A DNA stretch of 64,000 nucleotides from a virus: positions 72,865-136,864 of the IMG/VR virus record IMGVR_UViG_3300026521_000527. One strand, 5' to 3'. This document shows positions 6,525 through 64,000 of the stretch, piece by piece; within the stretch, counting starts at the first letter, position 1, and each line of letters begins with the position of its first letter. The notes beneath the pieces were generated by a model. The model had not been told where the DNA came from and did no database searches. It saw only the letters and a program-made list of their open reading frames with translations. The position numbers and the translations under genes were made by a program.

Positions 6525-7712
6525 TTACATTAAATCAGTCATTGATGAGCAAATTAAATCAATAAGTTCATTGTCATCAGAATCCATTAATAAGGATGCG
6601 AGTTCCTCAACAGGTTCTTTTATTGGATGATCTTGATTTTTATTAACCATTGTGTTTAAAATATTGTATTCATTAAGAAGAGTAGATACAAATGTTCTTT
6701 TATCTTTATTTGCATTGATTAAATCCAAAATAAATTTTGCATCTTTTTTAGTATTCATATACCTAATTACAAATCCTGTTAAAATTTGCTCTGTTAAATC
6801 ATCACTAACTTCAAATACTTCACCTTTTTTTATCTTAGCGCTAAAATTATATTTTTGAAATAGCTTTGAGTGTTTTATAAACTCTCTTGTTGCTTCATCA
6901 CCCACTCTAGATGCACTTGCAATCCTAGTCATTCTTAAGAACTCATCTTCATCTCTTGCATTTTCTTCAAGAACTTCCAAGAATGTACTTAACTCAGTCC
7001 ACGATCTTGGAGATGGCGAAACGGTATCCATCTCATTTGCACCTAATAATAAATTCATATTTGAATTATCTTTGGTAAATGATGCTATAAGTGGATGCAA
7101 AGTTGCTCCAATTTTATCATACCAATAATCTCTATCAAATTTAGCTGAATAAATACTCATTCTATCAAGGACTGCTTCATTAAATCCTTCAAAGCCAGCA
7201 CTTGAACTTATATTCATAGCCGCAACCAAATAAGCCTTTTCGGGTAATCTAAAATTCTGAAGTGTTTTATTCTGGAAAAATTCAAATAAATACTTTTGAG
7301 TATACGGTTCAACTAGATGTAAATCATCTAAAAGAATTATCAAACCATCTTTTCCATTTGCAAGAGCATGTTCAGTTTTAAGCATTATAATTCTTACAAT
7401 ATCAGACATTGTCCATTCAGTAACTTTGACTTCATCTAATTCAATTAATGAAATATCTTTATTGATTTTAATTTTATTAAAATCAGGAAGACCTGAGAAC
7501 CATTCCATTGGTAGCGCACCAAGTGACATAATTAAACAATCTGTATTCATTTCTTCAGCTAGAGCTTTTATTGAAGCACTTTTACCAATTCCTGGATCAC
7601 CTGCAATTGCTGGTACTAGATTGCTTTTTTTACTAGCTTGCGCAATAATCTCAAAACGCATAAGCTCCATAACTTCTCTTAAAAAATAATTTTGCCCTTT
7701 AAATTGTGCCAT
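6525..7712 (-). CDS. MoxR/dynein-related AAA+ ATPase
   Basis: Walker A GDPGIGKS, Walker B LLDD, AAMN, AVLDR and SPRSW. Confidence 0.85.
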   Translation of the reverse strand: MAQFKGQNYFLREVMELMRFEIIAQASKKSNLVPAIAGDPGIGKSASIKALAEEMNTDCLIMSLGALPMEWFSGLPDFNKIKINKDISLIELDEVKVTEWTMSDIVRIIMLKTEHALANGKDGLIILLDDLHLVEPYTQKYLFEFFQNKTLQNFRLPEKAYLVAAMNISSSAGFEGFNEAVLDRMSIYSAKFDRDYWYDKIGATLHPLIASFTKDNSNMNLLLGANEMDTVSPSPRSWTELSTFLEVLEENARDEDEFLRMTRIASASRVGDEATREFIKHSKLFQKYNFSAKIKKGEVFEVSDDLTEQILTGFVIRYMNTKKDAKFILDLINANKDKRTFVSTLLNEYNILNTMVNKNQDHPIKEPVEELASLLMDSDDNELIDLICSSMTDLM

Positions 7713-7787
7713 TATATATTCCTTTTATTTTTTTGATTTTAATTTTATTATAATAAGTTTATGGGTTGTAGTCTTTTCAAAGAGTTC

Positions 7788-7809
7788 GGAAATGATTAAA
7801 ATCATTTCC
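7788..7809. repeat. Inverted repeat, 10-bp stem, 2-nt loop
   Basis: ggaaatgatt-aa-aatcatttcc. Confidence 0.8.
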
Positions 7810-7836
7810 CTTTATCTAGTCAATTAAAAATTGACT

Positions 7837-7860
7837 AGAGTTATGTTCCAACATAACTCT
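7837..7860. repeat. Inverted repeat, 11-bp stem, 2-nt loop; matches a spacer of the terminal array
   Basis: agagttatgtt-cc-aacataactct; 23 bp are identical to 63853-63875. Confidence 0.9.
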
Positions 7861-20743: not shown

Positions 20744-22067
20744 TTGCTTCTTGTCTTAGTATACATGATCCACATTTGCCACAAGGTTCTCCATTTTTTG
20801 GAAAATAGCAACTAAATGAAATATCGAGGATTTCATTTAGTATCTCATCACCAAATTCTTCTCTAAATGATTTAATCATATTTGTCTTTGTCAATCCAAA
20901 ATAAGGTGAGATAACTCTATATCCTCCTGTAATTTTAAAATCTTTCCCACCAAATTTTACGACGGTTGATATAGCTTCCAACCAACCTTCACTATTATCC
21001 ATAAAAACCATACCCTCGGATAAATTTAATCCAAAAAGAATATCTACATTTTTTAGATTCATTGATTCAGCAAGAGCCGCTAAATCTATAGCAAATTGAC
21101 TATTTCTATATGGAACATAAGCTATTGGTGATTCCGTTTCGGATTTATCACCGATTGCATTTTTATTAGCTATTTTTGGCAACTGAGCATCAGTAATTTT
21201 AAAATAGTGCTTAAAGAATTTTTTAGCATTAATAATATTTACTTCAGCTCCTGGATAAATTCTCCTTTTGAAATCTTCAATTGCTTTGAGTTCTTTTGAA
21301 CTCGCGCGAGTTCCCCAATCAAAATAATTTAAAATTACTCTTCGATAATGAGTTGATAATAATTTATACGTTGATAACGATATATCCATTCCGCCGGAAA
21401 AAGCAACCATTAAAGTTCTTTGATTTGAATCTTTTTGACTTTTCTTTTCAAAGAGTTCAAAAGAACTGGTTCCCAAAATATTTTCAAAAATAACATTATC
21501 GAATTTATCCTTGATTACATTTCTTACCCATACTTTTAGTCCATGTTCAATAAACTTGAACATGTAATCAATTTTATCCAAATATATTATACTGAAGGAA
21601 CCTTCAGCTTCATCTAGATTTGATAACTCTTGTAAGATATCTGTATCTATCTTTATTTTAGTGTTATATTTTTCAGCTAATTTTTCAGCATTATAAACAG
21701 TCCCATGAACTGAAAAAATAATATCATCAAAATTGCAGGAAGTATATGGCTGTAATATATTTGGATATCCAATTTCCATTTCAGGTTCTTGTCGAGAGAA
21801 AATCATAAAATTGTATTTTTTTTCAGGATTGTATCCTTCAACAACTGCTTTTAAATTTTGCTCAAAAGCATATAATACTTCATCAATTGTATTTCCGGTA
21901 AATATAGTGTGCTTTTTATTGTCACTATCCGCGACTAACATTGATGTGTAATCATGTTTCCCATTCTGGGAGCCTTTTATTTTCAAATAGTTTTTTAAAT
22001 ATTTTTTAGCTTCTGGATTGTCAACAACAGTTGACCCTTTTGCAGTAAAAGATATTATTTGACACAT
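20724..22067 (-). CDS. Gat-QueC fusion (class II glutamine amidotransferase plus QueC)
   Basis: N-terminal Met-Cys (Ntn nucleophile) and HGTVYN, then FSGGMD, YFDWG, YVPYRN and the Zn motif CY..CGKCGSC. Confidence 0.85.
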   Translation of the reverse strand: MCQIISFTAKGSTVVDNPEAKKYLKNYLKIKGSQNGKHDYTSMLVADSDNKKHTIFTGNTIDEVLYAFEQNLKAVVEGYNPEKKYNFMIFSRQEPEMEIGYPNILQPYTSCNFDDIIFSVHGTVYNAEKLAEKYNTKIKIDTDILQELSNLDEAEGSFSIIYLDKIDYMFKFIEHGLKVWVRNVIKDKFDNVIFENILGTSSFELFEKKSQKDSNQRTLMVAFSGGMDISLSTYKLLSTHYRRVILNYFDWGTRASSKELKAIEDFKRRIYPGAEVNIINAKKFFKHYFKITDAQLPKIANKNAIGDKSETESPIAYVPYRNSQFAIDLAALAESMNLKNVDILFGLNLSEGMVFMDNSEGWLEAISTVVKFGGKDFKITGGYRVISPYFGLTKTNMIKSFREEFGDEILNEILDISFSCYFPKNGEPCGKCGSCILRQEAIASSDV

Positions 22068-24489: not shown

Positions 24490-24518
24490 TATTTATATAC
24501 TTAATTGATTTATTCTAA
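24490..24518 (-). promoter_or_regulatory. Candidate phage promoter TTAGAATAA-N8-AGTATATAAATA
   Basis: The same bipartite motif occurs at 36555 and 44891; it contains the T4-late-like TATAAATA. Confidence 0.55.
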
Positions 24519-24536
24519 ACTTAGATTTAAAATATA

Positions 24537-26510
24537 TTAATCATTAAACTCCATACCAATTAATTTTAATGCAGTGTTCACAGCACGTTTTGTCAGTGAA
24601 CTATATTTTGGATTTAAATCATATCCACCGTCGGTTACATATCTAAGAATAAATGTTTCTTTTTCTGTTACAGTGCTATCTGACTTAATTGTATACAACT
24701 CTTTTAACATACCATTCTTCTCTTTATGAGCTAAAAGCGCAGCTAGTGTTTGCCAACTGATATGTTGCCCACCTTGCTTTTTTCTACCTCTTGCCGGCTG
24801 CCCAGTGATTTTACTATAGCTATTTGCAAAAGATACTGAAGTGTATTTGCTATAACTAGTATGATGTAATTTTAACCAGTAGTTTGATCCAATAAATCCT
24901 TTAATAGTTTTCGAGTACACCTGATCACCAAATACTCTATTTTTATAATGCCATTTATCTCTCAACCATTTTATTAAATCTTCTGAAATTTCAACTTCTT
25001 CTTTGCCCATAAATATACCGAAATACGAACCATATTTATCAAGAAATTCATCAAAAAATTCTTTATATTTTAATTTATTAAAATTACTAGAATATAAAAA
25101 GAAACCATTCTTTTTAACATCCTCTAAAAAATCTTCAAAGAGTTCTTTTTGACTCAAAAGCTCTTGAACTTTTTTGTAATAATCCTCATCTATTTTTTTA
25201 ATGTAATGTTCATTTATAAACATTACTCTTTCTCTAATAGCTTCTTGATCTTCTACTTTAGATTCAACATCTTCTATGATCTTGCTCAATCCAAGTTCAA
25301 AAACACTCCCCCAATTATTTCTACCAAATATACCAAGAGGATTAAAAATTGCATCAACACCAGCAGGCATTAATTCATCCGGAATAATCATAGAAATTAC
25401 ACCTTTACCTGCATATAAATTAGTGAATTTATCACCTCGAGTACTTCCAACGGTAATTGCTATATCGACTTCCAGTAAAAAATCAACTTCAGTAGGATCC
25501 AAACCGAATTCGTCTTTCAATTTAGTATCAAAAGACTTTGGAAATTTATCAACACCATAATAACTAGAATATATTTCTTCTGTTAATTTTAAATTTTCTT
25601 CATCACTTAATCCTATCGATTTAAACGTCTCTTGTAATTGATTTTTAAATACGATATTATTATTATAAAAAGTCTCAATCTCTCGAATAAGTCCTGGTGT
25701 ATAAATATATTCTTGATCGAGTTCTACAAAACTCTTCTTATTATTTTTATGAACTTTGACTGATTGTATATTACCACCAAGAATACCTTTTATATTTTTG
25801 GTAAAAAATAAAGATTCTTGTGAACTTAAGTTTTGTATTTCAGACACAAAGTGTTCACTGGTATCTATATTAAAAAATTTTATATATTCTTCAATATCCA
25901 TCACTTGTCCAGGCGAGAAGAAATATTGATCCATCCCGTTCCTTAGATATTTCCATTTCTTAGTCACCGGAATAAATAATTTTTGAGAGTATGAAATTTG
26001 AGCTCGTCTAGCAAATGATTCAGATACGACTAAAGCATCATCCGAAGTATATCCAAAAAAGCTACTAAATAATATTTTGGTCCTGTATCCTATTCTAGGC
26101 ATCTTTGATTCCGGATTCATATTAGTATAATCAAAAAGAAGTTCTCCTTTTTTAATTGGCCCAACTGGTGCGATATATTTTACACCGAGTGAAAGGTTAA
26201 CCATTTTTTTAAATTTCGGGACATGTTTAGATACCAGTTTTTTTAAACTGGTATAATAAATAATAATAGTCTCTCTGCTTGAAAGAATTACATAACCATC
26301 ATCTTGGGCAATTTGACTAAAAGGAGAATCAACTTCAGATATACCTAAATAATTTTTGTCAATTATAAATGGTGTTTCTGTTAAATTACTAACACATGCT
26401 TGCGTCTGCTGTTTACTTGACATATTTAACCTTGACGCTTCCACCGAGTTCGCAAACGATGTAAATGTTTCAATTTGAGGACTAAATAAAACTAAATTCT
26501 TTTTTTCCAT
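24537..26510 (-). CDS. Phage multi-subunit RNAP set A, beta subunit C-terminal part
   Basis: SRLNMSSKQQTQA, GYTSDDAL, GDKF...GKGVIS, FNPLG..GR.N.G, LKLHH and RGR..QGGQ. Confidence 0.9.
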   Translation of the reverse strand: MEKKNLVLFSPQIETFTSFANSVEASRLNMSSKQQTQACVSNLTETPFIIDKNYLGISEVDSPFSQIAQDDGYVILSSRETIIIYYTSLKKLVSKHVPKFKKMVNLSLGVKYIAPVGPIKKGELLFDYTNMNPESKMPRIGYRTKILFSSFFGYTSDDALVVSESFARRAQISYSQKLFIPVTKKWKYLRNGMDQYFFSPGQVMDIEEYIKFFNIDTSEHFVSEIQNLSSQESLFFTKNIKGILGGNIQSVKVHKNNKKSFVELDQEYIYTPGLIREIETFYNNNIVFKNQLQETFKSIGLSDEENLKLTEEIYSSYYGVDKFPKSFDTKLKDEFGLDPTEVDFLLEVDIAITVGSTRGDKFTNLYAGKGVISMIIPDELMPAGVDAIFNPLGIFGRNNWGSVFELGLSKIIEDVESKVEDQEAIRERVMFINEHYIKKIDEDYYKKVQELLSQKELFEDFLEDVKKNGFFLYSSNFNKLKYKEFFDEFLDKYGSYFGIFMGKEEVEISEDLIKWLRDKWHYKNRVFGDQVYSKTIKGFIGSNYWLKLHHTSYSKYTSVSFANSYSKITGQPARGRKKQGGQHISWQTLAALLAHKEKNGMLKELYTIKSDSTVTEKETFILRYVTDGGYDLNPKYSSLTKRAVNTALKLIGMEFND

Positions 26511-26520
26511 TGTGTTCCTT

Positions 26521-28011
26521 TTATTCTAAAGTGGTTTTCAACGCACCAGCATCAATTTCAAGAATTTCCTTAAAACTATTCGCTTCGGTTTTATCATAGC
26601 GAATACCATCAAATCTTGGATGCAATAAACTTGGATACCCATCCTTATTATAGCTAATACCATTGCATACAACCGAAATTATTTGCCCTAATCTTTCTTC
26701 TTTATGTGTCCAACCATATTCTCTTTCTTTTTCATCAAGACCAGGAGCTTTCGTTTTTATTTTTGAACAACTTGATTCAACAATATATGCACCCAAAGTA
26801 TTCTCATATTTAGTACCAGGATCACCTTGTCTAAAACCAGTTATTTTTAACTCAACTGATATCTCATGTTTGAGTTTAATTTGATATACTGGTTTGCCAG
26901 ATTTCCATTGACCCGTTCTTGATTTAACTATAGTTCCTTCACCACCTCTTTTTTTAATCTCAATAAAATGCTTTTTCGCTTCTTCAATTGATGTAATTAT
27001 TTTAGTATGGACTGGTTTAAAAAAAGAGTTGTTTTTCAATAGCCGTCTAACTAACTGGAATCTTTTTTTATACGGACTATCCGAAAACCCATTACGAAAT
27101 TCGTCTTTATTTATCACATCCCAACACACAAAGTAAATTCTAGACTTTAAGTCAAAATAATCATATTCCTCGGAGATCCTTTTAAACTCTCTAATTTTTT
27201 GATATTTTTGACCTTCTGCAACCTTTTTCTCAATTTTTGAAATACTATTCAAAAGACCATTTGATGTGTATCTATCAATTCCAGAAATTAATACTTCCGA
27301 ATTAAATACAACATCATCGAGTCCAAAAGCACTCATCTTCTTTAAAATTTTATTTATATTTTTATATTGATCTGCTGTCAAAGAACCTAGATAAATAGGC
27401 TTCATATCCCTAGTCAATAATCTTAAGGTTCTGCCTTTAACATCAAGAAAACCATTTGAATACATTCCATCCATTTTTTCTTGACTATAAAGAATATTAT
27501 TTTCTTTTTTAAAAAGATTATCTAATTTTTTAACACTGTATGGAATTGCTCCCATATAATGTTTATCCAAAACCAGATTTGGTACAGCTGCATTTATTTT
27601 CTTATACTGCATGCCAATTTTTAAATCCTTTTTAAGAAGATCTATGATTAAATATCTATGTTTATTTGGGACTCGAGATAACAACTCTTCGAGAAAATAT
27701 TTTGCTGCATGTCCGCGCAGCTTTTTATGGATTAAATTGAGTTCTAAATCACTCAAAGCTTCATATAAAGATAAGCTCTCTTTAGAATTAAAATCTTGAA
27801 TTTCAAGGGTATCTAAAGTTTTTTGACCAAGATTAAAAATAACATCTGGATTATAAACCATTTGAAAATATTTTTGAAATACTATTTTTTTATCAGTGGT
27901 TTTATCAGTGGTCGAGATATCTTTAAAAAATTCAGATAATATATTTATCTTTTTAAGAGTACTTGATTCATTTTTTAACTCAGTTATTAAATAATCTAAT
28001 TCGGTATACAT
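26521..28011 (-). CDS. ATP-dependent DNA ligase
   Basis: EKMDG (KxDG), NSEV, CWDV, EGTIVK, IKLK and an OB-fold LHPRF..IRYDK. Confidence 0.92.
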   Translation of the reverse strand: MYTELDYLITELKNESSTLKKINILSEFFKDISTTDKTTDKKIVFQKYFQMVYNPDVIFNLGQKTLDTLEIQDFNSKESLSLYEALSDLELNLIHKKLRGHAAKYFLEELLSRVPNKHRYLIIDLLKKDLKIGMQYKKINAAVPNLVLDKHYMGAIPYSVKKLDNLFKKENNILYSQEKMDGMYSNGFLDVKGRTLRLLTRDMKPIYLGSLTADQYKNINKILKKMSAFGLDDVVFNSEVLISGIDRYTSNGLLNSISKIEKKVAEGQKYQKIREFKRISEEYDYFDLKSRIYFVCWDVINKDEFRNGFSDSPYKKRFQLVRRLLKNNSFFKPVHTKIITSIEEAKKHFIEIKKRGGEGTIVKSRTGQWKSGKPVYQIKLKHEISVELKITGFRQGDPGTKYENTLGAYIVESSCSKIKTKAPGLDEKEREYGWTHKEERLGQIISVVCNGISYNKDGYPSLLHPRFDGIRYDKTEANSFKEILEIDAGALKTTLE

Positions 28012-28026
28012 TAGTCTCCTTTAAAA

Positions 28027-28512
28027 TTAATATCCAAAATCTAATTCATTATATGAATAATCCTCAGAATTCCACAAAGAAGATTCAAAATCGCCTTCAA
28101 ATACATTACCATCAGGATCATAATAATATAAACCAACTGGAATAAATTTTTCAACATCTCCATATTTATCATCAAAAAAATAATGTTCTAATATTAAAGT
28201 ATTTGCTCTACCAAATATAATATATGAATCAGTCGTCCAATCATCAACTATATCAAAATATTCGGCCGCCTGCCCAATATTGAAAACAAGATTATTTTCA
28301 ATAACATCCTTCGCATTGAAGATCTTCTCCTCAATAAAAACATCACCAGATGTGTTCAGAATTGCAAATCTTACTAAAATTTCATCACAATATGGTTCGG
28401 AAATGAGGTAGGCATCCGGATCATTTTTTAATGGAATAAAATTCCAACTACTATCCCTAATTGATTCTTGTAAAATTTCTAAATTATTTAATGATTGCAT
28501 CTTTTTACTCAT
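28027..28512 (-). CDS. Hypothetical protein
   Basis: 161-aa acidic ORF overlapping the upstream stop. Confidence 0.7.
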   Translation of the reverse strand: MSKKMQSLNNLEILQESIRDSSWNFIPLKNDPDAYLISEPYCDEILVRFAILNTSGDVFIEEKIFNAKDVIENNLVFNIGQAAEYFDIVDDWTTDSYIIFGRANTLILEHYFFDDKYGDVEKFIPVGLYYYDPDGNVFEGDFESSLWNSEDYSYNELDFGY

Positions 28513-29807
28513 TTTAACTCCTCAGTATATTTATTAATTATGTATTCAATTGATTCATCGTTTAATAAATCAGATTGGATATCTGATGGAACCACTTTTG
28601 ATTTCATTTTTCTTTGACTCAAATCAATCTCTTGTCCTGTAAACTTATAAACCATTTTCTCTAAACCTTCTTTAACCATATAACCTATTTCGATTTTTAA
28701 ATCAATTCGTCCTTTTCTCAAAAGCGCGTCATCCAACTCATCTAAGTTATTGGTAGTCGTAATTAATACACGCCCATGTGGACTTTTAACACCATCCATA
28801 ATTTTTAATAATTCTGAAAGTGTACTAAGACTCGAACCACCAGCCGCATCTTTTTGAATACCAGTTAACTCTTGCCCTTCATTAACTTTAAGTTCATTAA
28901 GTGCCGGTTCTTGATTTTCATTATTTTTAAACTTTTGGAAATCAAGTTGACGTTTCTTAGCACCAAGTGTATCAATTTCCTCTAATAATATTACACCATC
29001 ACTTGTATCTACATTCAAATGATGAGCAAAATTTGCTAAATAAAAATCTCTATTTAAATAACTCGCAATTGTTTTCGCTATTGAGGTTTTCCCAGTTCCC
29101 GGAGGCCCATAAAGCAATATTCCAAAGTGGTATGGAATATCTAAATCAATATACCTTTCTTCCTGTTCTATGAAACCATCAAGAGCATTTTTTATAAGAT
29201 CAATTTTTTCCTGTTCAATATAAATTGTATCAAAAGACCTCTTATATATTTGCCCAATAATCCTACTAGCATTACTTTCTATTTCATGGACCCATATTTT
29301 ATTTGGATCAGTGTGTTCGTTAATTGCTTCATGAAGTAGATTATCAAAAAATTTATGACTTCTTCCGAGGATAGTCAGACGCATCTCTTTTAAAATACCT
29401 GTCTGGATTTTTTCAGATTTTACATTTATCAGACAGAATTTCTTATTCAATTTAAATATCTGTGTACCATTCCCTATTGATTTTCCACCCTGAATGTTCG
29501 ATTTCCAAAAACCACTATTAAAATTTATTATTCTTGATTTTTTATCTAGATTATTTCCATCTTTATTTAAAATTTTTTCAACTTGATAATAAATACGATT
29601 ATCATCTGTGATAATTAAAGTAGTCGTTAAATGTTTTTTTAAAAATCTAATAAATCTTCCTGGAAGTTCTCTAGCTAAATAAAGACCGGTACTTCCAACG
29701 CCAGTTAAAATTAGACCGGTCGCAAATTCATTCCCACCTGTAATTAAATCTATATAGTTATTCACTGATTGGAATATACTCGTTAAAAACCCAACTTCAT
29801 CTTGCAT
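28509..29807 (-). CDS. BCS1-like membrane-anchored AAA+ ATPase
   Basis: N-terminal hydrophobic helix, GILLYGPPGTGKTS, ILLEEID and TTTN..LD.ALLR.GRID. Confidence 0.8.
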   Translation of the reverse strand: MQDEVGFLTSIFQSVNNYIDLITGGNEFATGLILTGVGSTGLYLARELPGRFIRFLKKHLTTTLIITDDNRIYYQVEKILNKDGNNLDKKSRIINFNSGFWKSNIQGGKSIGNGTQIFKLNKKFCLINVKSEKIQTGILKEMRLTILGRSHKFFDNLLHEAINEHTDPNKIWVHEIESNASRIIGQIYKRSFDTIYIEQEKIDLIKNALDGFIEQEERYIDLDIPYHFGILLYGPPGTGKTSIAKTIASYLNRDFYLANFAHHLNVDTSDGVILLEEIDTLGAKKRQLDFQKFKNNENQEPALNELKVNEGQELTGIQKDAAGGSSLSTLSELLKIMDGVKSPHGRVLITTTNNLDELDDALLRKGRIDLKIEIGYMVKEGLEKMVYKFTGQEIDLSQRKMKSKVVPSDIQSDLLNDESIEYIINKYTEELK

Positions 29808-29831
29808 TTTTTTCCTTTAATGTTTTTAATC

Positions 29832-29867
29832 TGGAGTTCAGAGGCACTCCAGTGCCTCTGAACTCCA
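29832..29867. repeat. Inverted repeat, 17-bp stem, 2-nt loop
   Basis: tggagttcagaggcact-cc-agtgcctctgaactcca. Confidence 0.95.
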
Positions 29868-29872
29868 CAATC

Positions 29873-31045
29873 TTAGAATTTTATTTTACCGTACTTATTA
29901 ATTAAAGTGGTAGAAGTAAAAACTAAATTTGACCCCATATTTTGAGGGGAAACTGTAATTGGACAAATTCTTCCAAAACTTGATTTATCATTTCTTTGCC
30001 AACTTTTTGGCAATCTCCCTTGCTTAATAATTTGAATATCTTGGGATACCTTATTTATCAAAGGAAGTGCGAAAGGTAAACTTATATCATAAAGTTGCCC
30101 TCGATGTAATAATTTATTAAATCCAGTTGTCATGACGGCATATTCATTTAACGTCGGTAAAAAGTTCTGACCTTTTTTATCAACGATTCCATAAAGTAAT
30201 CTAATATACATTTCAAGTAAAGGTCTAATTAAATATTCAGTTAATACAACACGACGATTATGCAAATCAGCCATATCAATAATAGTCTTATCAACATAAT
30301 ACTCTATTACCTTTTTAATAATATCAAAAAGATTGTCGACACTATAATAATCGTTGAAGATTTCACGATAGTAATCCAATAATAAATATCTATCCATCCA
30401 AGCAGGAACATCAATGTCATTAAAATTTTCCCATTTATAAAAATCAAGAAACCCTTTGACAAATTTTCTTTGATCTTCCCTAGTAAATTTAAGCTTGCTG
30501 ATTAACCCAAGTTCTTTTAACTCATGAAGATAATCTGGATCATTTTGAAAAAATACTCTAAAAAATACATCCATACTTACCTGTTTTGATCTAAAATGAA
30601 CTGAACCTTTTTGAAAATCAAAAGTAAAATTATAAACAGCATTCAAATTAATAAAAATTTTATCTTTACCATCATCCTCATTAAATATCCTATCGATTGG
30701 CGCTTTTTCCAGGAATAGTAATGGAACATAAGTACTACCATTTAAGATGAAATAATTATTATCAATAAGCGCCGGGATTAAAGCCGTGGTTTCATTTGAG
30801 AAATCTCCATGCTTCTGTTTAATAATAACTCGATCATAATAATTAGCTGAGTCGGCTAAGTATTGACTTGTAGATCTTTCCCAATCTATTGAATATTCAA
30901 AAGACTCATCAATTTCTTTAATATTACTGTACATATTCGCTAATAAAGATCTAGATTTCATTAAGTCAACTTTTCTAAAATCTTTAATATGCATATAATT
31001 ATCCGTCGTTAAGTCTCGTGAAGAGAAATGTATAGAATTCATCAA
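29873..31045 (-). CDS. Phage RNAP set A, beta subunit N-terminal part
   Basis: YFILNG..YVP, D.ADL.NRRV and SFGRICPITVS.QNMG (equivalent of the rifampicin region). Confidence 0.85.
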   Translation of the reverse strand: MMNSIHFSSRDLTTDNYMHIKDFRKVDLMKSRSLLANMYSNIKEIDESFEYSIDWERSTSQYLADSANYYDRVIIKQKHGDFSNETTALIPALIDNNYFILNGSTYVPLLFLEKAPIDRIFNEDDGKDKIFINLNAVYNFTFDFQKGSVHFRSKQVSMDVFFRVFFQNDPDYLHELKELGLISKLKFTREDQRKFVKGFLDFYKWENFNDIDVPAWMDRYLLLDYYREIFNDYYSVDNLFDIIKKVIEYYVDKTIIDMADLHNRRVVLTEYLIRPLLEMYIRLLYGIVDKKGQNFLPTLNEYAVMTTGFNKLLHRGQLYDISLPFALPLINKVSQDIQIIKQGRLPKSWQRNDKSSFGRICPITVSPQNMGSNLVFTSTTLINKYGKIKF

Positions 31046-36554: not shown

Positions 36555-36583
36555 TATTTATATACTTCGAGAAGTTATTCTAA
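36555..36583 (-). promoter_or_regulatory. Candidate phage promoter TTAGAATAA-N8-AGTATATAAATA
   Basis: Second copy of the motif; it overlaps the clamp-loader stop codon. Confidence 0.55.
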
Positions 36584-37591
36584 ACTATAAATTCCACCCC
36601 CTTTCGCTTCAAATATATTTTCAAGTATCTGAGCAAACATTGTTAAAAAATGCAAAGTCTTAAATCTTTTTAACTCCAAATCTTGATAAAATTCTTGAAT
36701 TGTTTTTTGATGTAATAGATTCAAATCCGAATCAATCAATCCTTTAAATATATAATCAAAATTTAAATGCAGATCTGATTTAAAAACTTTTAAAATGTAC
36801 TCATAATAAGTGAAAAAATGCTGATCATTTTTTGCATCCTTAATAATATCAAGTTCTAATCCGACACCCAATGTCTCAAAATATTTTATCAGGTACACAG
36901 CATAATTTATTACGTTATCCTCAGTATCAGATACACCAATAAAACTGTTAATTATACTTGGATCAAATATTCCAGATACTGATGCAAGTTCCAAATTATT
37001 TATAATATCTCGAAGACCTTTAGTTTTAAAAGAACTTACGAATTTTTTAAGATCTTCTAGATGGTATTTTATTTTTTCAGAATCTAGAATAAATTTTACT
37101 CTTTCGAATATCTTATTTTCATCAAGATCTGTAAAATGTATTTTGGTATTAAATCTAGTCAGGAGGGCCGAATCCATTTTTTCAGGATTATTCGTCGTTG
37201 CTAAAAAAGCAGTCGTCGCTTGATATTTTTCTAATAACCCATCTTTCAAGACAACTTGAGCCTGAGCACTTAGTCTATCAATTTCTTCGATTTTAACTAT
37301 TTTCTGTTTACTACTTGCTGCACGCTGCTGCAACCATCTAGCTAATTCATCAACGGAATCAATTTTTCGATCCAAGATAAAGATATCTACTCTATTTTTT
37401 ACAATGCGATTAATTAGAACTTCATTAATGGTTGTCTTTCCAAGTCCAGCAGCACCATAACTTAAAATATTACCATTAATAAATTCATTATTATAAAAAG
37501 TTCTAATAACTTTTTCTATATTTTCATTTGGAAAAATAACTTCATCAATTGATCTGGGGCGATATTTTTCAAACCACGCTTTAAACATCAT
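36575..37591 (-). CDS. Clamp loader AAA+ subunit (RFC/T4 gp44-like)
   Basis: WFEKYRP..IDEV, GAAGLGKTT, IEEIDRL..AQ and TTN...ALLTRF. Confidence 0.9.
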   Translation of the reverse strand: MMFKAWFEKYRPRSIDEVIFPNENIEKVIRTFYNNEFINGNILSYGAAGLGKTTINEVLINRIVKNRVDIFILDRKIDSVDELARWLQQRAASSKQKIVKIEEIDRLSAQAQVVLKDGLLEKYQATTAFLATTNNPEKMDSALLTRFNTKIHFTDLDENKIFERVKFILDSEKIKYHLEDLKKFVSSFKTKGLRDIINNLELASVSGIFDPSIINSFIGVSDTEDNVINYAVYLIKYFETLGVGLELDIIKDAKNDQHFFTYYEYILKVFKSDLHLNFDYIFKGLIDSDLNLLHQKTIQEFYQDLELKRFKTLHFLTMFAQILENIFEAKGGGIYSLE

Positions 37592-39067: not shown

Positions 39068-39100
39068 ATATTTCCTTTATTATTTTGATTGGGCACGGAA

Positions 39101-39131
39101 GGGGATAGGGTGCATAGTGCACCCTATCCCC
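39101..39131. repeat. Inverted repeat, 14-bp stem, 3-nt loop
   Basis: ggggatagggtgca-tag-tgcaccctatcccc. Confidence 0.95.
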
Positions 39132-39136
39132 TAATA

Positions 39137-44890: not shown

Positions 44891-44920
44891 TATTTATATA
44901 CTATCCGAAAGTTATTCTAA
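44891..44920 (-). promoter_or_regulatory. Candidate phage promoter TTAGAATAA-N9-AGTATATAAATA
   Basis: Third copy of the bipartite motif. Confidence 0.55.
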
Positions 44921-44937
44921 AATATATTTTGATAGTT

Positions 44938-46575
44938 TTATTCGATTGAAACTATATTAAGCATTAATTTTCTACTGGATCCAAAAGTATCTTCACCTAG
45001 CTTAAAATATATAGAATATTCTTTATTAATCTCAGGTACTTCCGATGTAAAAAACTTCATCGCTTTGAACTTAATTAATTTATTTTTATCGGATAACTCC
45101 AAACTAAGATGATTTTTACCTTTACCTATTAATTTGGCTTTTGTAATTATTGCTTCTGTTCTGAAAATTGGTCTCTCATAATCTTTTCCAAAAGGTTCAA
45201 ACATTTTCAATGAATCATACAATGAAATATCTAGATAATTGAACGGAATAAACCCTATTGATTTTATATCGGATTTAAACATTTCCTTGGGAATTCTTGC
45301 GCTTTTATCTAGTAATTCTTTATAAAAATTATCAAAATTTTCTAAAGTTACCGTTATCCCCAAAGCCTGTTTATGTCCACCAACTTGCTTAACGTATTTA
45401 TTATCTCTAAGAATTTCAAGTATATTGATTTTTCCAGCGGTTCGTCCACTACCAGAATACTCTTGGGTATCCGGATTAAAATTAAAAACTATTGCTGGCT
45501 TATTATATTTCTCTACAAGTTTTGATGCAACAATTCCTGCTACACTTTTATATTCTTTATGAAATCTTCCAGGAATAATTATAAAATCTTTATCAAAATA
45601 TTGTCTGTAATGTTTTTCAACGTATTCAAATAAATCATTTTGAATTTTTTTGCGTGTATCATTGACCTGTTTTAAATAATTGAACCACTCTAAACTTTTT
45701 TCCTCAGTTTCTTGAATCATAAATAGGGCACCGTGATCTGCCTTTGTAATTCTTTGAGTAGCATTTATCATCGGAGTTAGATTAAAAGCAATGTCCTCGG
45801 CCGTTGGGGAATCGGATACAAACTTTCTAAATGTTTTAAAATAAATTCTTTCAATTGAGTTCTTTTGAACTCCAGTGGTTAAACTTTTTACCACAAATCT
45901 ATTTAGATGTCTATCAATAGGCATCACATCACTTATTGTAGTTAATCCTAATTCAGGTAAGAATTCATTAAATAAATTAACATTTAATCCAAGACGTTCA
46001 CAAATTGCCTTTAAAAAAAACCACAATACAAACGTTCCACTAATATCTTTATATTTAAAATTGTCTCCAGGTATGTGTGGATCGACTATTGCTGGTGTAT
46101 CAGGTAACCCCAATTCTAAATCTGGTTGATGGTGATCTGTAATTATAACATTCGCTCCCATTTCACGAGCTTTCCTAGTTGCATCAACACTTGTAATTCC
46201 ATTATCTGCAGTTATGTATAAACTAACATCTTCAGTTACATGCGATGGTAAAAATCCATAACCTTGCTTTCTATCAGTTATTATAAACTCAACATATTGA
46301 TACTTAAAATGTTTTAAAAAGAAATTCCAAAAAAGTGTATAAGTTCCTAATCCATCACAATCACTATCACATATGCATTTTATTTTCTTATTATTACTAA
46401 TTGCTTCGACAAAATAATCAACAGCTATTTGCATATTCTTTAAATCAAAAGGATCTGGGAATTGATCCAATGATTCAATCTGATCTGGGTGTAATTTATT
46501 TTTTAAAATTTCTTCAATATCATCAATTGAATTAATTATTATTTCTTTTTCTTTTTGCGTAGTATTATTGTCCAT
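44938..46575 (-). CDS. recJ: RecJ ssDNA 5'-3' exonuclease
   Basis: DSDCDG, TADNG, TDHH, ISDVMP, GSGR and GGH..A.G. Confidence 0.92.
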   Translation of the reverse strand: MDNNTTQKEKEIIINSIDDIEEILKNKLHPDQIESLDQFPDPFDLKNMQIAVDYFVEAISNNKKIKCICDSDCDGLGTYTLFWNFFLKHFKYQYVEFIITDRKQGYGFLPSHVTEDVSLYITADNGITSVDATRKAREMGANVIITDHHQPDLELGLPDTPAIVDPHIPGDNFKYKDISGTFVLWFFLKAICERLGLNVNLFNEFLPELGLTTISDVMPIDRHLNRFVVKSLTTGVQKNSIERIYFKTFRKFVSDSPTAEDIAFNLTPMINATQRITKADHGALFMIQETEEKSLEWFNYLKQVNDTRKKIQNDLFEYVEKHYRQYFDKDFIIIPGRFHKEYKSVAGIVASKLVEKYNKPAIVFNFNPDTQEYSGSGRTAGKINILEILRDNKYVKQVGGHKQALGITVTLENFDNFYKELLDKSARIPKEMFKSDIKSIGFIPFNYLDISLYDSLKMFEPFGKDYERPIFRTEAIITKAKLIGKGKNHLSLELSDKNKLIKFKAMKFFTSEVPEINKEYSIYFKLGEDTFGSSRKLMLNIVSIE

Positions 46576-46618: not shown

Positions 46619-46649
46619 TAGAGTGTTGTGGCTTAGCCACAACACTCTA
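46619..46649. repeat. Inverted repeat, 15-bp stem, 1-nt loop, overlapping a stop codon
   Basis: tagagtgttgtggct-t-agccacaacactcta. Confidence 0.95.
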
Positions 46650-61126: not shown

Positions 61127-62473
61127 TTATATTGTGTTTATCGAAAGCTGTAGTTTATCTTTTACTCTTTTGATTCTATCTTGGAGTTCTTTTCTTCTGA
61201 GTTCTTCGTGTTGTTGTCTAATTAATCCTAATATTTTAACTTTAAAACTTCTAGAAGTTGAATAAGAATCGTAACCATAACGTTCTCTACATGTAGCTTT
61301 AGATTTCTCTTGGAACTCTGGTGTTTGCATAAACCAGTCGGCTCCATACCATTCGCGATTTGTGGCTTTAGATTTCTCTTGAAATTCTGGTAGCCTACTT
61401 TTATATTCATCCGATTGAGAATAATGTTCGGCACCATAACGTTCTCTACATGTAGCTTTAGATTTCTCTTGAAATTCTGGCAACCTACTTTTGTATTCTG
61501 ATGTTTGCGCAAACCAGTCGGCTCCATACCGCTCGCGATTGGTCTTAATTGTTTTAATTCGGTATTCTGGTAATTTGGATTCGTATTCATCCGATTGAGG
61601 ATACCAGTCAACATTATAACGCTCTTGGTTAGTAGCTTTAATTTTATTAATTATTTCTGACATTTGACTTTGAATACGTTCTTTATATTCTGGCGTTTGC
61701 GCAAACCAGTCGACACCATATCGCTCATGATTTGTGGCTTTTATTTTTTCATTATAAAACTGCTGATGTTTCTTACGGTGCTCTGAATTTAAATAATTCA
61801 TCGAACCGTAATTTTTAAGAGAGGTTTGCTTTTTCTTTTCTTTTATAAAATCAGCTTTTGAAATATTATCAACCCCATATTTTTGAATAAAAGTTTGCTT
61901 TTTCTTTTCTTGGAGTTCAGCTGAATCATTCGGATTCCTGACTCCGTAATTTTTATAAAGAGTTTCTTCTTTTTGCTTCTTTATTTCATCAAGCATAGAA
62001 ATATTTCTAACGCCGTATTTTTCTTCTATTGATTGCTCAAGAGTTCTTGTTAACTCTTTATCTTTAAACTCTTTATGGATTTTTTTATCAGCAGTATTTA
62101 ATTGCTTTATATCACAATATTTTGAAAAGCCGTAGTCTTTATTTAAAAAAGTTCTTGGGTGATCACATCCGGGTACCAAACATTTGAAATCATCTTTAGT
62201 GATATTAAACTCAATAAATTTTCTTCGAACACTTAGCTTAGTATCTGTTGGAAGATAATTGGTCCGTTTGATCAATAAATCAGCTAGAAAAATAAATAGT
62301 TTTTGCTTATCTTTTCTCCAACTTTTTGAAAGAGTTCCACGAAATAAACCAGTCGTTGAGCTAATAAAACCAGCTTTCGTTAATTCATCAATTATGTCAA
62401 TACTCTCAGAACCCATCTTTTCGACGGATTCTTTTAGTTTATTTAGTTGCGTTGTATAATCCAAGGGCTGCAT
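61127..62473 (-). CDS. Homing-endonuclease-associated repeat protein (ERYG repeats), no nuclease domain recognised
   Basis: C..PGC...YC ribbon followed by many K.TN.ERYG.DW..Q..E repeats. Confidence 0.7.
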   Translation of the reverse strand: MQPLDYTTQLNKLKESVEKMGSESIDIIDELTKAGFISSTTGLFRGTLSKSWRKDKQKLFIFLADLLIKRTNYLPTDTKLSVRRKFIEFNITKDDFKCLVPGCDHPRTFLNKDYGFSKYCDIKQLNTADKKIHKEFKDKELTRTLEQSIEEKYGVRNISMLDEIKKQKEETLYKNYGVRNPNDSAELQEKKKQTFIQKYGVDNISKADFIKEKKKQTSLKNYGSMNYLNSEHRKKHQQFYNEKIKATNHERYGVDWFAQTPEYKERIQSQMSEIINKIKATNQERYNVDWYPQSDEYESKLPEYRIKTIKTNRERYGADWFAQTSEYKSRLPEFQEKSKATCRERYGAEHYSQSDEYKSRLPEFQEKSKATNREWYGADWFMQTPEFQEKSKATCRERYGYDSYSTSRSFKVKILGLIRQQHEELRRKELQDRIKRVKDKLQLSINTI

Positions 62474-63686
62474 CTAATTTTATCCCCCAGTTTTGAACAC
62501 TAGCATCGTTTAAACTTAAGAATTTTTCTTTGGACTCAGGACCGAACTTTTGACTACACTCGGATGCCGCAGATAGAGTTAAAAGTCCTACTACTCCAAG
62601 TACGTCACCATCCGAATTAGCATTTAACGGAGTAATCGGGAGCATATAGTTATTCGCTGTCGGATCTTGCATCGTCAAATCATACATTATTGTATTATTA
62701 ACTTCAATAAATACTAAGTCTATCACTGGGATTAATTCAAGATTCTCATGATTTACATTTGAATAAAAATCATCAGCCTCTGTTGACGAATAAAGAATTT
62801 CTTCTACTTCTTCTGAAGTTGTACTTAACTTTTTGACAGTAATTTTACCTTCGTCTTCACAGAAATACCAACGATATTCTTTAAAAAATTTAGGATGTAA
62901 ACTAGAAATTCTTTTAAATTTTATCGGTAATTTAAACCGAATATGCTTGTATTCATTGACATTTCTGATACTATATTGTGCACCCAATATATTTAAAATA
63001 TATGTAAAGTTATATAGGTTTATATAATTTTTTATATATAAACGATTGGCTTTTTTAATTAATCCATCAAGAATTCCTACTAAAAATTCAGGATTTGAAT
63101 TCAAAAGAATGTCTTTATTTATATTAATTCTACCAGCTTCATCCTGCCGAACGATTAATTTTAATTCTTCGAAGAAATCAGGATACTCTAATTTTTTAAT
63201 TCTGTAGCTCTTTTGATTCGGGCCTGTCTGAACCAAATCAATTTTATTTATGAAATCCCCGATATCATAACCAAATTCATAATTTAATTTAATTGTAATT
63301 TCTTTTTCTATATCCTCATGGCTAGTCGAACCTTTTTTAATTACATTTATTTCAGTATTATCTGATACTTGATTTAAATTATAAATTAAAAATTTATTTG
63401 AATTATTATTAGCGACTTCAGAAATATTCAGTGGTTTTATTGTATCTGTATTCGGGCAATAAAACATTAAGCTATTTTTTTCACCAACGATAAAATTTGT
63501 CTTTTTATTAAAATAACCAACATTACATCTATTATTTTTACCGAAATCATTCTTCGAAAGAATCTGGTAACCTTTTTGAACATTGTGCTTAAAAATAGTA
63601 GTTGATTCCTGATTAATAACTACTGGTAGTCTATCTTGTCTTATACTTCTGCTCTCTATTTTTGCCGGTCTAGAATCTAATTTCAT
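62439..63686 (-). CDS. Split intein C-fragment (357 aa, LAGLIDADG remnant) fused to a 58-aa RNAP beta-prime catalytic C-extein
   Basis: Block F YDLTM..NNY and block G LNAN|S. The extein SDGDVLGV..LLTLSAASE...DAALGLYNAT parallels the bacterial DGDQMAV..LTLEAQ.E...DVVLGLYY.T. Confidence 0.85.
   Translation of the reverse strand: MKLDSRPAKIESRSIRQDRLPVVINQESTTIFKHNVQKGYQILSKNDFGKNNRCNVGYFNKKTNFIVGEKNSLMFYCPNTDTIKPLNISEVANNNSNKFLIYNLNQVSDNTEINVIKKGSTSHEDIEKEITIKLNYEFGYDIGDFINKIDLVQTGPNQKSYRIKKLEYPDFFEELKLIVRQDEAGRININKDILLNSNPEFLVGILDGLIKKANRLYIKNYINLYNFTYILNILGAQYSIRNVNEYKHIRFKLPIKFKRISSLHPKFFKEYRWYFCEDEGKITVKKLSTTSEEVEEILYSSTEADDFYSNVNHENLELIPVIDLVFIEVNNTIMYDLTMQDPTANNYMLPITPLNANSDGDVLGVVGLLTLSAASECSQKFGPESKEKFLSLNDASVQNWGIKLDAALGLYNATK
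62616..63686 (-). mobile_element. Split intein C-fragment (IntC) with a degenerate LAGLIDADG domain
   Basis: YEFGYDIGD (block C-like), FLVGILDG (block E-like) and ILNILG..YSI (block H-like); terminal Asn followed by +1 Ser. Confidence 0.8.
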
Positions 63687-63802
63687 ATAACTTCCTTTGT
63701 GTATTTTTGCTTGTTTTGCTTATGTAGTATATTTATATTGGAGCTCTAATAAACTCTAATTTATTCTTGTTTGATTAAAATTAATCGGTAGTCTGAATTC
63801 GA

Positions 63803-64000
63803 CCGATGTAAACATTTGGCTTTTGTAAAATATACTCTATTAAAAATTACAAAGAGTTATGTTCCAACATAACTCAAGCCGATGTAAACATTTGGCTTTT
63901 GTAAAATATACTCTATTAAAAATTTATTTGAGTGCGAGTTAACTCGCACTCAAGCCGATGTAAACATTTGGCTTTTGTAAAATATACTCTATTAAAAATT
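63803..64000. repeat. Direct-repeat array: 46-bp repeat x3 with 30-nt hairpin spacers (truncated by the window end)
   Basis: ccgatgtaaacatttggcttttgtaaaatatactctattaaaaatt at 63803, 63879 and 63955. Confidence 0.95.

Follow-up and report, generated by a model that had tools for sequence, protein, structure and literature searches.

What role could be played by identical direct repeats that alternate with hairpin-forming segments at the head of a long phage gene block, and is the arrangement the CRISPR array that its regular spacing suggests? The locus that raises this question (63803-64000) closes a 64,000-nucleotide stretch of DNA, hereafter the window, which corresponds to positions 72,865 to 136,864 of IMG/VR virus record IMGVR_UViG_3300026521_000527. 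The complete record is a 136,864-bp contig with 29.7% G+C and an estimated completeness of ~49%. It derives from a jumbo phage and carries split multisubunit RNA polymerase genes; immediately to the left of the array are genes for a primase-helicase and a homing endonuclease.

Three tandem hairpin-plus-repeat units precede the IntC gene

A direct reading of the sequence and two repeat finders confirmed the layout given in a preliminary description of this DNA, namely three identical 46-bp copies of a repeat (here R) with 30-nt spacers and a 76-bp period; Tandem Repeats Finder placed the array at 63803-64000 (period 76, 2.6 copies, score 285). The first copy (R1, CCGATG...AAAAATT) occupies 63803-63848 and is followed by variable segment 1 (63849-63878), R2 (63879-63924), variable segment 2 (63925-63954) and R3 (63955-64000), all given here without a strand. 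The array had been said to run to the edge of the window, and the last base of R3 is indeed the end of both window and contig.

Both variable segments are self-complementary, as had also been noted for the spacers. Sequence reading, folding and a hairpin scan located in segment 1 a hairpin (HP1, GAGTTATGTT-cc-AACATAACTC, 63854-63875, -8.9 kcal/mol) whose 10-bp arms are separated by 2 nt, and in segment 2 a perfect 26-bp palindrome with a GAGTG core (HP2, 63928-63953, -17.2 kcal/mol). Because each segment terminates in CTCAAG, the identity between copies 2 and 3 extends over 53 bp. R by itself folds into almost no structure (-0.5 to -1.9 kcal/mol). In composition-matched random 30-mers the frequency of stems of at least 10 bp is 1.6e-4, and in 30-mers taken from the contig it is 4.3e-3, a rarity which argues that hairpins in two of two segments are not a product of chance.

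To the left of R1, reading of the sequence and an alignment of six R copies revealed a degenerate zeroth unit (63784-63807, no strand assigned), in which a remnant of the repeat tail, ATTAAAATT, precedes a weak hairpin (ATCGGT-N12-ACCGAT, -6.9 kcal/mol) whose 3' arm overlaps the start of R1. The six aligned copies, which include those of a related contig described below (L004), share an invariant 13-nt core, TTTGGCTTTTGTA. Neither a Shine-Dalgarno (SD) sequence nor an ATG follows the internal units. The array is a real, unusual-looking feature that consists of three tandem, gene-less hairpin-plus-R cassettes. One further exact copy of TTTGGCTTTTGTA is present at 45133-45145 of the window, within a predicted gene, where by our estimate ~0.01 copies would be expected by chance, and a 19/23 near-copy is found at 63036-63058, within the reading frame of IntC.

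The array lies upstream of the IntC gene (62439-63686, minus strand), in agreement with the preliminary description. This gene is the first of 57 minus-strand genes that form an uninterrupted block of 62 kb, and its product belongs to a conserved family with 71 homologs; one other contig encodes an IntC protein that is 95% identical.

A second phage carries the segment at a different junction

Exact searches of IMG/VR with the R 46-mer, an R 23-mer and HP2 returned no match, the 23-mer had no match in 185,579 species genomes, and Rfam yielded no match for the array. A 16-mer core gave more than 116 single matches in IMG/VR among those listed, which a BLAST screen identified as chance matches, while an R 21-mer was found in five metagenome-assembled genome (MAG) contigs within repeated coding sequence that shared no flanking similarity, and was judged coincidental. 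The only match in GenBank phages was a 30-bp chance match outside the array. At the protein level, an alignment-based search with the IntC gene product retrieved seven distant IMG/VR loci, none of the seven with an array and none with a significant DNA match, and a single-protein IMG/VR search with the same product gave no match.

The one relative found to carry the segment is L004, a 107-kb metagenome contig in which an array-like segment is located internally at ~42 kb. Its elements follow the same order as ours (HP1-R-HP2-R), with 83% identity over 162 bp by BLAST. The preliminary description had called for a comparison of spacers with related phages; in L004 both hairpins are retained in order and their cores are identical to ours, over ~21 nt for HP1 and ~26 nt for HP2 (a 24-nt exact BLAST match for the latter). 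The repeats have diverged: L004 copy c is 87% identical to our R, copy b is less similar, b and c differ from one another, and a third copy (a), further left, is degenerate. Between the two phages R is conserved only over a core of 13-29 nt, and the stretch from the leftmost R to the first gene is likewise conserved only at the core. A packaging or terminal role, which had been proposed for the array, is unlikely given this internal position of the homologous segment in a 107-kb contig.

In L004 the segment resides in a spacer of ~600 bp with eight hairpins, between diverging blocks of ~10 and ~7 genes, and the putative promoter element P (see below) is situated immediately to the right of R copy c. 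The flanking genes encode MYG1-like, PNK/RNA-ligase, HNH, ResIII-helicase and ParM-like proteins; none of the L004 protein-coding genes has a homolog in our contig, and no cas genes were detected among the ten flanking genes scanned.

A complete 281-kb relative, G001, provides a map on which both loci can be placed. Homologs of 67 of the 131 contig genes are present in G001 in collinear order, with identities of 24-81%, and the end of our contig falls precisely on the IntC junction of G001 (32.7 kb). In G001, too, IntC is the first gene of a block, here of 42 genes; the junction is divergent and its spacer measures only 82 bp. No comparable tandem array was found anywhere in the complete G001 genome, and other relatives also have short spacers upstream of IntC. 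In G001 the counterparts of the helicase, ParM-like and MYG1-like genes of L004 lie at 110-117 kb, beside another divergent junction, and this interval falls in the half that is missing from our contig (approximately G001 32.8-161 kb). Since the genes that flank the L004 segment lack homologs in our contig and are placed at another junction of G001, the cassette occurs in unrelated contexts, and near-copies of the segment sit at two distinct block-head junctions of this lineage.

As far as can be told, both ends of our contig are assembly breaks and not genome ends. Were the missing half of the genome to contain the segment a second time, this would explain why assembly stopped at the final base of a 53-bp exact repeat. 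This also bears on the suggestion that the array is an assembly artefact or a physical genome terminus, which we regard as very unlikely. It is true that the array sits at the very end of a ~49%-complete contig, and that the 53-bp identity of copies 2 and 3 is of a kind that makes de Bruijn graph assemblies branch, but the independent 107-kb contig has HP1-R-HP2-R internally at ~42 kb, the left boundary of our array grades into unique sequence through the degenerate unit, and a second segment copy would account better for the contig break.

The array hairpins belong to a genome-wide family of gene-end palindromes

Perfect palindromes with arms of at least 10 bp number 72 in the contig compared with 2-10 in Markov shuffles, and those with arms of at least 12 bp number 41 compared with 0-1. 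These long palindromes are placed between co-directional genes at -5 to +13 nt from stop codons, and GAGT is carried by 25 of the 72; both HP1 and HP2 bear this GAGT core. HP1 itself recurs twice, at window 7837-7860 directly after a minus-strand gene and in the same orientation as in the array, and in inverted orientation between convergent genes at contig 21852-21873. The earlier suggestion that the array is a source of dispersed hairpins is therefore correct in the link that it drew, as shown by HP1 at 7837 and 21852 and by the GAGT cores, but nothing points to the array as their source.

The similarity extends beyond the hairpins. The 3' end of R, ATTAAAAATT, also flanks HP1 at window 7837-7860; the hairpin-plus-AATTTTTAAT part is dispersed over three loci, and the AATTTTTAAT flank is common to the array and to the HP1 site behind the minus-strand gene. 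That site forms a solitary relative of the array unit, a three-hairpin cluster (7775-7860, no strand assigned) at the 3' end of the minus-strand gene that ends in ATTAAAAATT-N5-HP1. Within it, ~71 bp (window 7775-7845) are 94% identical to L004 7532-7603, another module of the hairpin-rich L004 spacer, although the neighbouring genes are unrelated, and this cluster suggests that short intergenic modules are shuffled between contexts.

On the minus strand, each array hairpin is followed by a T-run, and a consensus scan scored two terminator-like sites where shuffled sequences led us to expect 0.1. HP1 and HP2 would thus qualify as intrinsic terminators on that strand, with a predicted stable, G+C-containing stem and then a T-run. 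Elsewhere in the contig, a pyrimidine tract and TGTGC come directly after palindromes at gene ends (for example, window 46619-46649, 29832-29867 and 39100-39132). In G001, A/T-clamped hairpins followed immediately by (T)CCTGT[G/C] are ubiquitous, and the composite of hairpin and (T)CCTGT[G/C] is also present upstream of IntC in more distant relatives. The combination of a hairpin with a conserved motif is the normal intergenic signal across the clade, putatively either as a terminator tail or as a terminator-promoter unit. Conserved hairpin-plus-motif terminators have been documented experimentally in the jumbo phage 201phi2-1 (PMC11512511).

G001 also features a 12-bp palindrome, GAGCAATTGCTC, in ~20 upstream regions, often doubled into longer hairpins (for example, G001 62259-62291, 71375-71407 and 234712-234747). 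This palindrome resembles an operator and may correspond to GAGTTC...GAACTC, an apical motif that is frequent in the hairpins of our phage.

A candidate early promoter and the question of a promoter in R

The element adjacent to the L004 segment, P (TTAGAATwACT-N9-AGTATATAAATA; L004 ~7290-7330), is followed in that contig by a leader hairpin, an SD sequence and an ATG. In our contig P, as TTAGAATwA-N~10-AGTATATAAATAAT, is present at seven intergenic sites, among them window 44891-44920, 36555-36584 and 24490-24519 (all minus strand) and, outside the window, contig 61782, 33016 and 24668. It is always located 27-201 nt upstream of a gene and points at that gene, and in many cases a leader hairpin whose loop is ATCGG comes after it. 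P is a candidate early promoter of the phage: early promoters of jumbo phages feature a highly conserved AT-rich motif of ~10 nt near -10 (PMC7598289), a description that P fits. An analogous motif, ACTATAAATATATTAAC, is present in 9-10 upstream regions of G001, while a scan of IMG/VR with the P pattern gave no match. Between the IntC gene and the array, reading of the sequence identified TTAGAG-N16-TATAAATATAC (63727-63759, minus strand), which resembles both P and the G001 motif and is a weak candidate for the proximal promoter of the IntC gene.

R itself is less easily read as a promoter. Its sigma-70-like match (TAAACA-16-TATACT, plus strand) is at chance level only. The -10-like AGTATAT on the minus strand is common to R and P and is not conserved in the L004 copies of R. 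Sigma-54 and Bacteroidetes-type promoter readings of R do not fit by eye, and R as a dispersed promoter consensus was rejected, as the contig holds no further copies.

The direction in which the array might be transcribed is ambiguous, because T-runs follow the hairpins on the minus strand whereas on the plus strand a small hairpin followed by TTTTGTA resembles the clade's terminator tail of hairpin, pyrimidines and TGT. A minus-strand reading appears mildly favoured on the basis of the T-runs, the matching orientation of HP1 behind the minus-strand gene at 7837 and the adjoining head of the minus-strand block.

A proposed duplicated transcription-punctuation cassette

Our leading explanation, to which we assign roughly even chances, is that a gene-less cassette comprising a terminator hairpin and R has been amplified in tandem specifically in this lineage, and that the resulting array probably serves as transcription punctuation. 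Each 76-bp unit joins one GAGT-core hairpin to the unstructured, AT-rich 46 bp of R, and the array stands just ahead of the long leftward block whose first gene is IntC-RNA polymerase. The hairpins and their T-runs would stop leftward transcripts, while R could be a promoter or operator, or else a conserved tail of the terminator. Should R initiate transcription, a transcript would start and immediately stop in each unit, releasing an RNA of ~60 nt. Recombination or slippage among the dispersed hairpin cassettes is the best explanation for the tandem layout and for finding this segment at a second junction in a relative. Terminator activity, a promoter in R, the direction of transcription and the recombinational origin of the array are what we infer from these sequence patterns. 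Several points count against punctuation: the promoter-like signals in R are at chance level or not conserved in L004, the direction of transcription is ambiguous, terminators have no obvious purpose in a non-transcribed spacer between diverging blocks, most of the dispersed palindromes are without U-tracts, and R is found in the array alone.

The array is akin to known clusters of phage regulatory cassettes and is not a new system. T4-like phages carry composite terminator/promoter cassettes (PMC4122927), the PeSL (promoter-early stem-loop) cassettes treated by Arbiol et al. 2010 (PMC2839356). PeSLs are common to unrelated flanks and cluster in plastic regions, and their degraded or multiplied copies have been ascribed to recombinational slippage (Comeau et al. 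2014, PMC4122927). Our array resembles them as a small non-coding cassette in which a stem-loop terminator (putative in our case) adjoins a conserved AT-rich element, in its clustering in a plastic region, and in the occurrence of the same cassette beside unrelated genes in related phages, as found for our contig and L004. It differs in that there is no sequence homology, the candidate promoter in R is not above chance in a sigma-70 scan, and our phage carries its own multisubunit RNA polymerases. Furthermore, PeSL copies are many and dispersed, each followed by an SD sequence and a start codon, whereas the array units are gene-less and R is confined to the array in the known half of the genome, which counts against a PeSL-like reading.

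A second parallel comes from 201phi2-1, in which short RNAs arise from a start site directly followed by a terminator (PMC11512511); conserved terminator motifs and start-then-stop RNAs are likewise attributed to phiKZ in work cited by that paper. These nucleus-forming phages are also jumbo phages with their own RNA polymerases, in which a hairpin and a conserved sequence together act as a terminator signal. Their elements are single and were mapped experimentally, whereas ours are tandem, are known from sequence alone and belong to a lineage that is unrelated at the DNA level.

The REP/BIME elements of enterobacteria are dispersed extragenic palindromes at gene ends that share a short conserved motif and form clusters with conserved linkers. 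The gene-end palindromes of our phage are comparable in their short motif, their clustering and the conserved linkers between them, but REP stems share a consensus where ours share only GAGT, and the setting is a phage rather than a bacterial chromosome. A further difference is that no match to the Y1 (RAYT) transposase family (PF01797) was obtained in the 137-kb contig, which represents half of the genome.

If this explanation holds, genome punctuation in an uncultured vent jumbo-phage lineage relies on palindromes that vary in sequence but carry a motif, and that are linked to short conserved elements. These modules would be exchanged between unrelated intergenic contexts and pile up, gene-less and in tandem, where long gene blocks begin. 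Transcription of the units would make them a compact case of start-then-stop RNAs in a phage that encodes its own RNA polymerases, and binding of a protein to R would mark R as a regulatory or replication node. The R repeat probably explains why assembly stopped, which is of practical use for completing the genome.

Alternative explanations

An iteron-type replication origin, which the preliminary description had put forward, or a partition/centromere site, is a weaker alternative to punctuation that we consider unlikely. According to this reading, the R copies bind an initiator, their AT-rich tails unwind and the palindromes aid melting. Three identical direct repeats at a strand-switch point are consistent with such a function, as is the primase/D5-type helicase gene 2.7 kb from the array, and the R core is conserved outside any obvious promoter hexamer. 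In L004, moreover, the segment separates diverging blocks, and genes for a helicase and a ParM-like protein are close by. A check of GC skew, suggested at the outset as a test for an origin, gave a divided answer: skew is uniformly negative over the 62-kb block, and the array lies where this block ends and cumulative skew is at its minimum, but around the array skew simply tracks gene orientation. Moreover, the 46-bp repeats with a period of 76 bp (7.2 helical turns) contrast with typical phased iterons of 17-22 bp, and no initiator was recognised. The comparison of genomes weakens the reading further, since the same junction in G001 has a spacer of only 82 bp with no comparable array anywhere in that genome, and the segment occupies two different map positions in the lineage.

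A dedicated small-RNA array seems to us rather improbable, although the idea overlaps with punctuation. Here, every unit would act as a gene in its own right and encode an RNA of ~60 nt with a constant part and a variable hairpin, the latter copying the phage's own terminator hairpins, and the RNA would act as a decoy or regulator. In both orientations the units do form two neighbouring hairpins (-17.7 to -23.8 kcal/mol), and the array fold has a z-score of approximately -5 on both strands, but these z-scores stem from DNA palindromes, which fold equally well on either strand, and the small constant hairpin is not kept in L004 copy b. The terminator-like T-runs on the minus strand and the perfect conservation of the hairpin cores in L004 are compatible with RNA genes, and jumbo phages do make short start-then-stop RNAs (PMC11512511). 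Set against this, the candidate promoter in R is not above chance, Rfam gave no match, and two sequences, ours and that of L004, are too few for covariation.

More speculatively, and with a probability that we put somewhat lower still, the units could be mini transcription units with a start followed by a terminator that yield RNAs of ~60 nt, or the empty slots of a cassette-exchange platform. The variable part of the RNAs from such mini-units, in copying gene-end hairpins, may for instance provide decoys that titrate a hairpin-recognising factor, such as a terminator, nuclease or regulator. In the cassette-exchange version, genes may move between block-head junctions by means of gene-less slots. 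Integron attC sites were also considered and rejected, given a misfit to the core-site consensus by eye and the failure of a domain search to find a tyrosine recombinase.

The weakest reading is a true CRISPR array, phage-borne or host-derived, with cas genes beyond the contig end. The locus shares with CRISPR arrays the regular alternation of identical direct repeats (23-50 bp class) with equal-sized variable segments, the contig breaks within the array, and a 46-bp repeat with 30-nt spacers matches the dimensions of some long-repeat type II-C arrays. This lead is largely refuted and the likeness is superficial, because the spacers are conserved and self-matching (both are palindromic, and spacer 1 matches its own genome at two sites) while L004 has the same spacers in the same order between repeats that have diverged from ours and from each other, conserved hairpins with diverging repeats being the reverse of CRISPR behaviour. 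The absence of cas genes from the window, as originally described, extends to the whole 137-kb contig for the two families searched (Cas1, PF01867, and Cas12f/TnpB, PF07282), and the repeat matched no Rfam family. With a CRISPR identity reduced to a barely credible option, a false lead is removed.

Other repeats in the contig

Two further repeated regions were noted. A 90-bp tandem repeat (2.4 copies, 69% match) at window 61317-61528 lies within the DUF7487 homing-endonuclease gene and agrees with three repeated DUF7487 stretches in Pfam. Outside the window, contig 24591-30109 appears as intergenic on a crude gene map, yet it features repeated coding-like segments with a recurring GGxCC...TCGATG pattern, and is probably a family of repeat-containing genes missed by that map.
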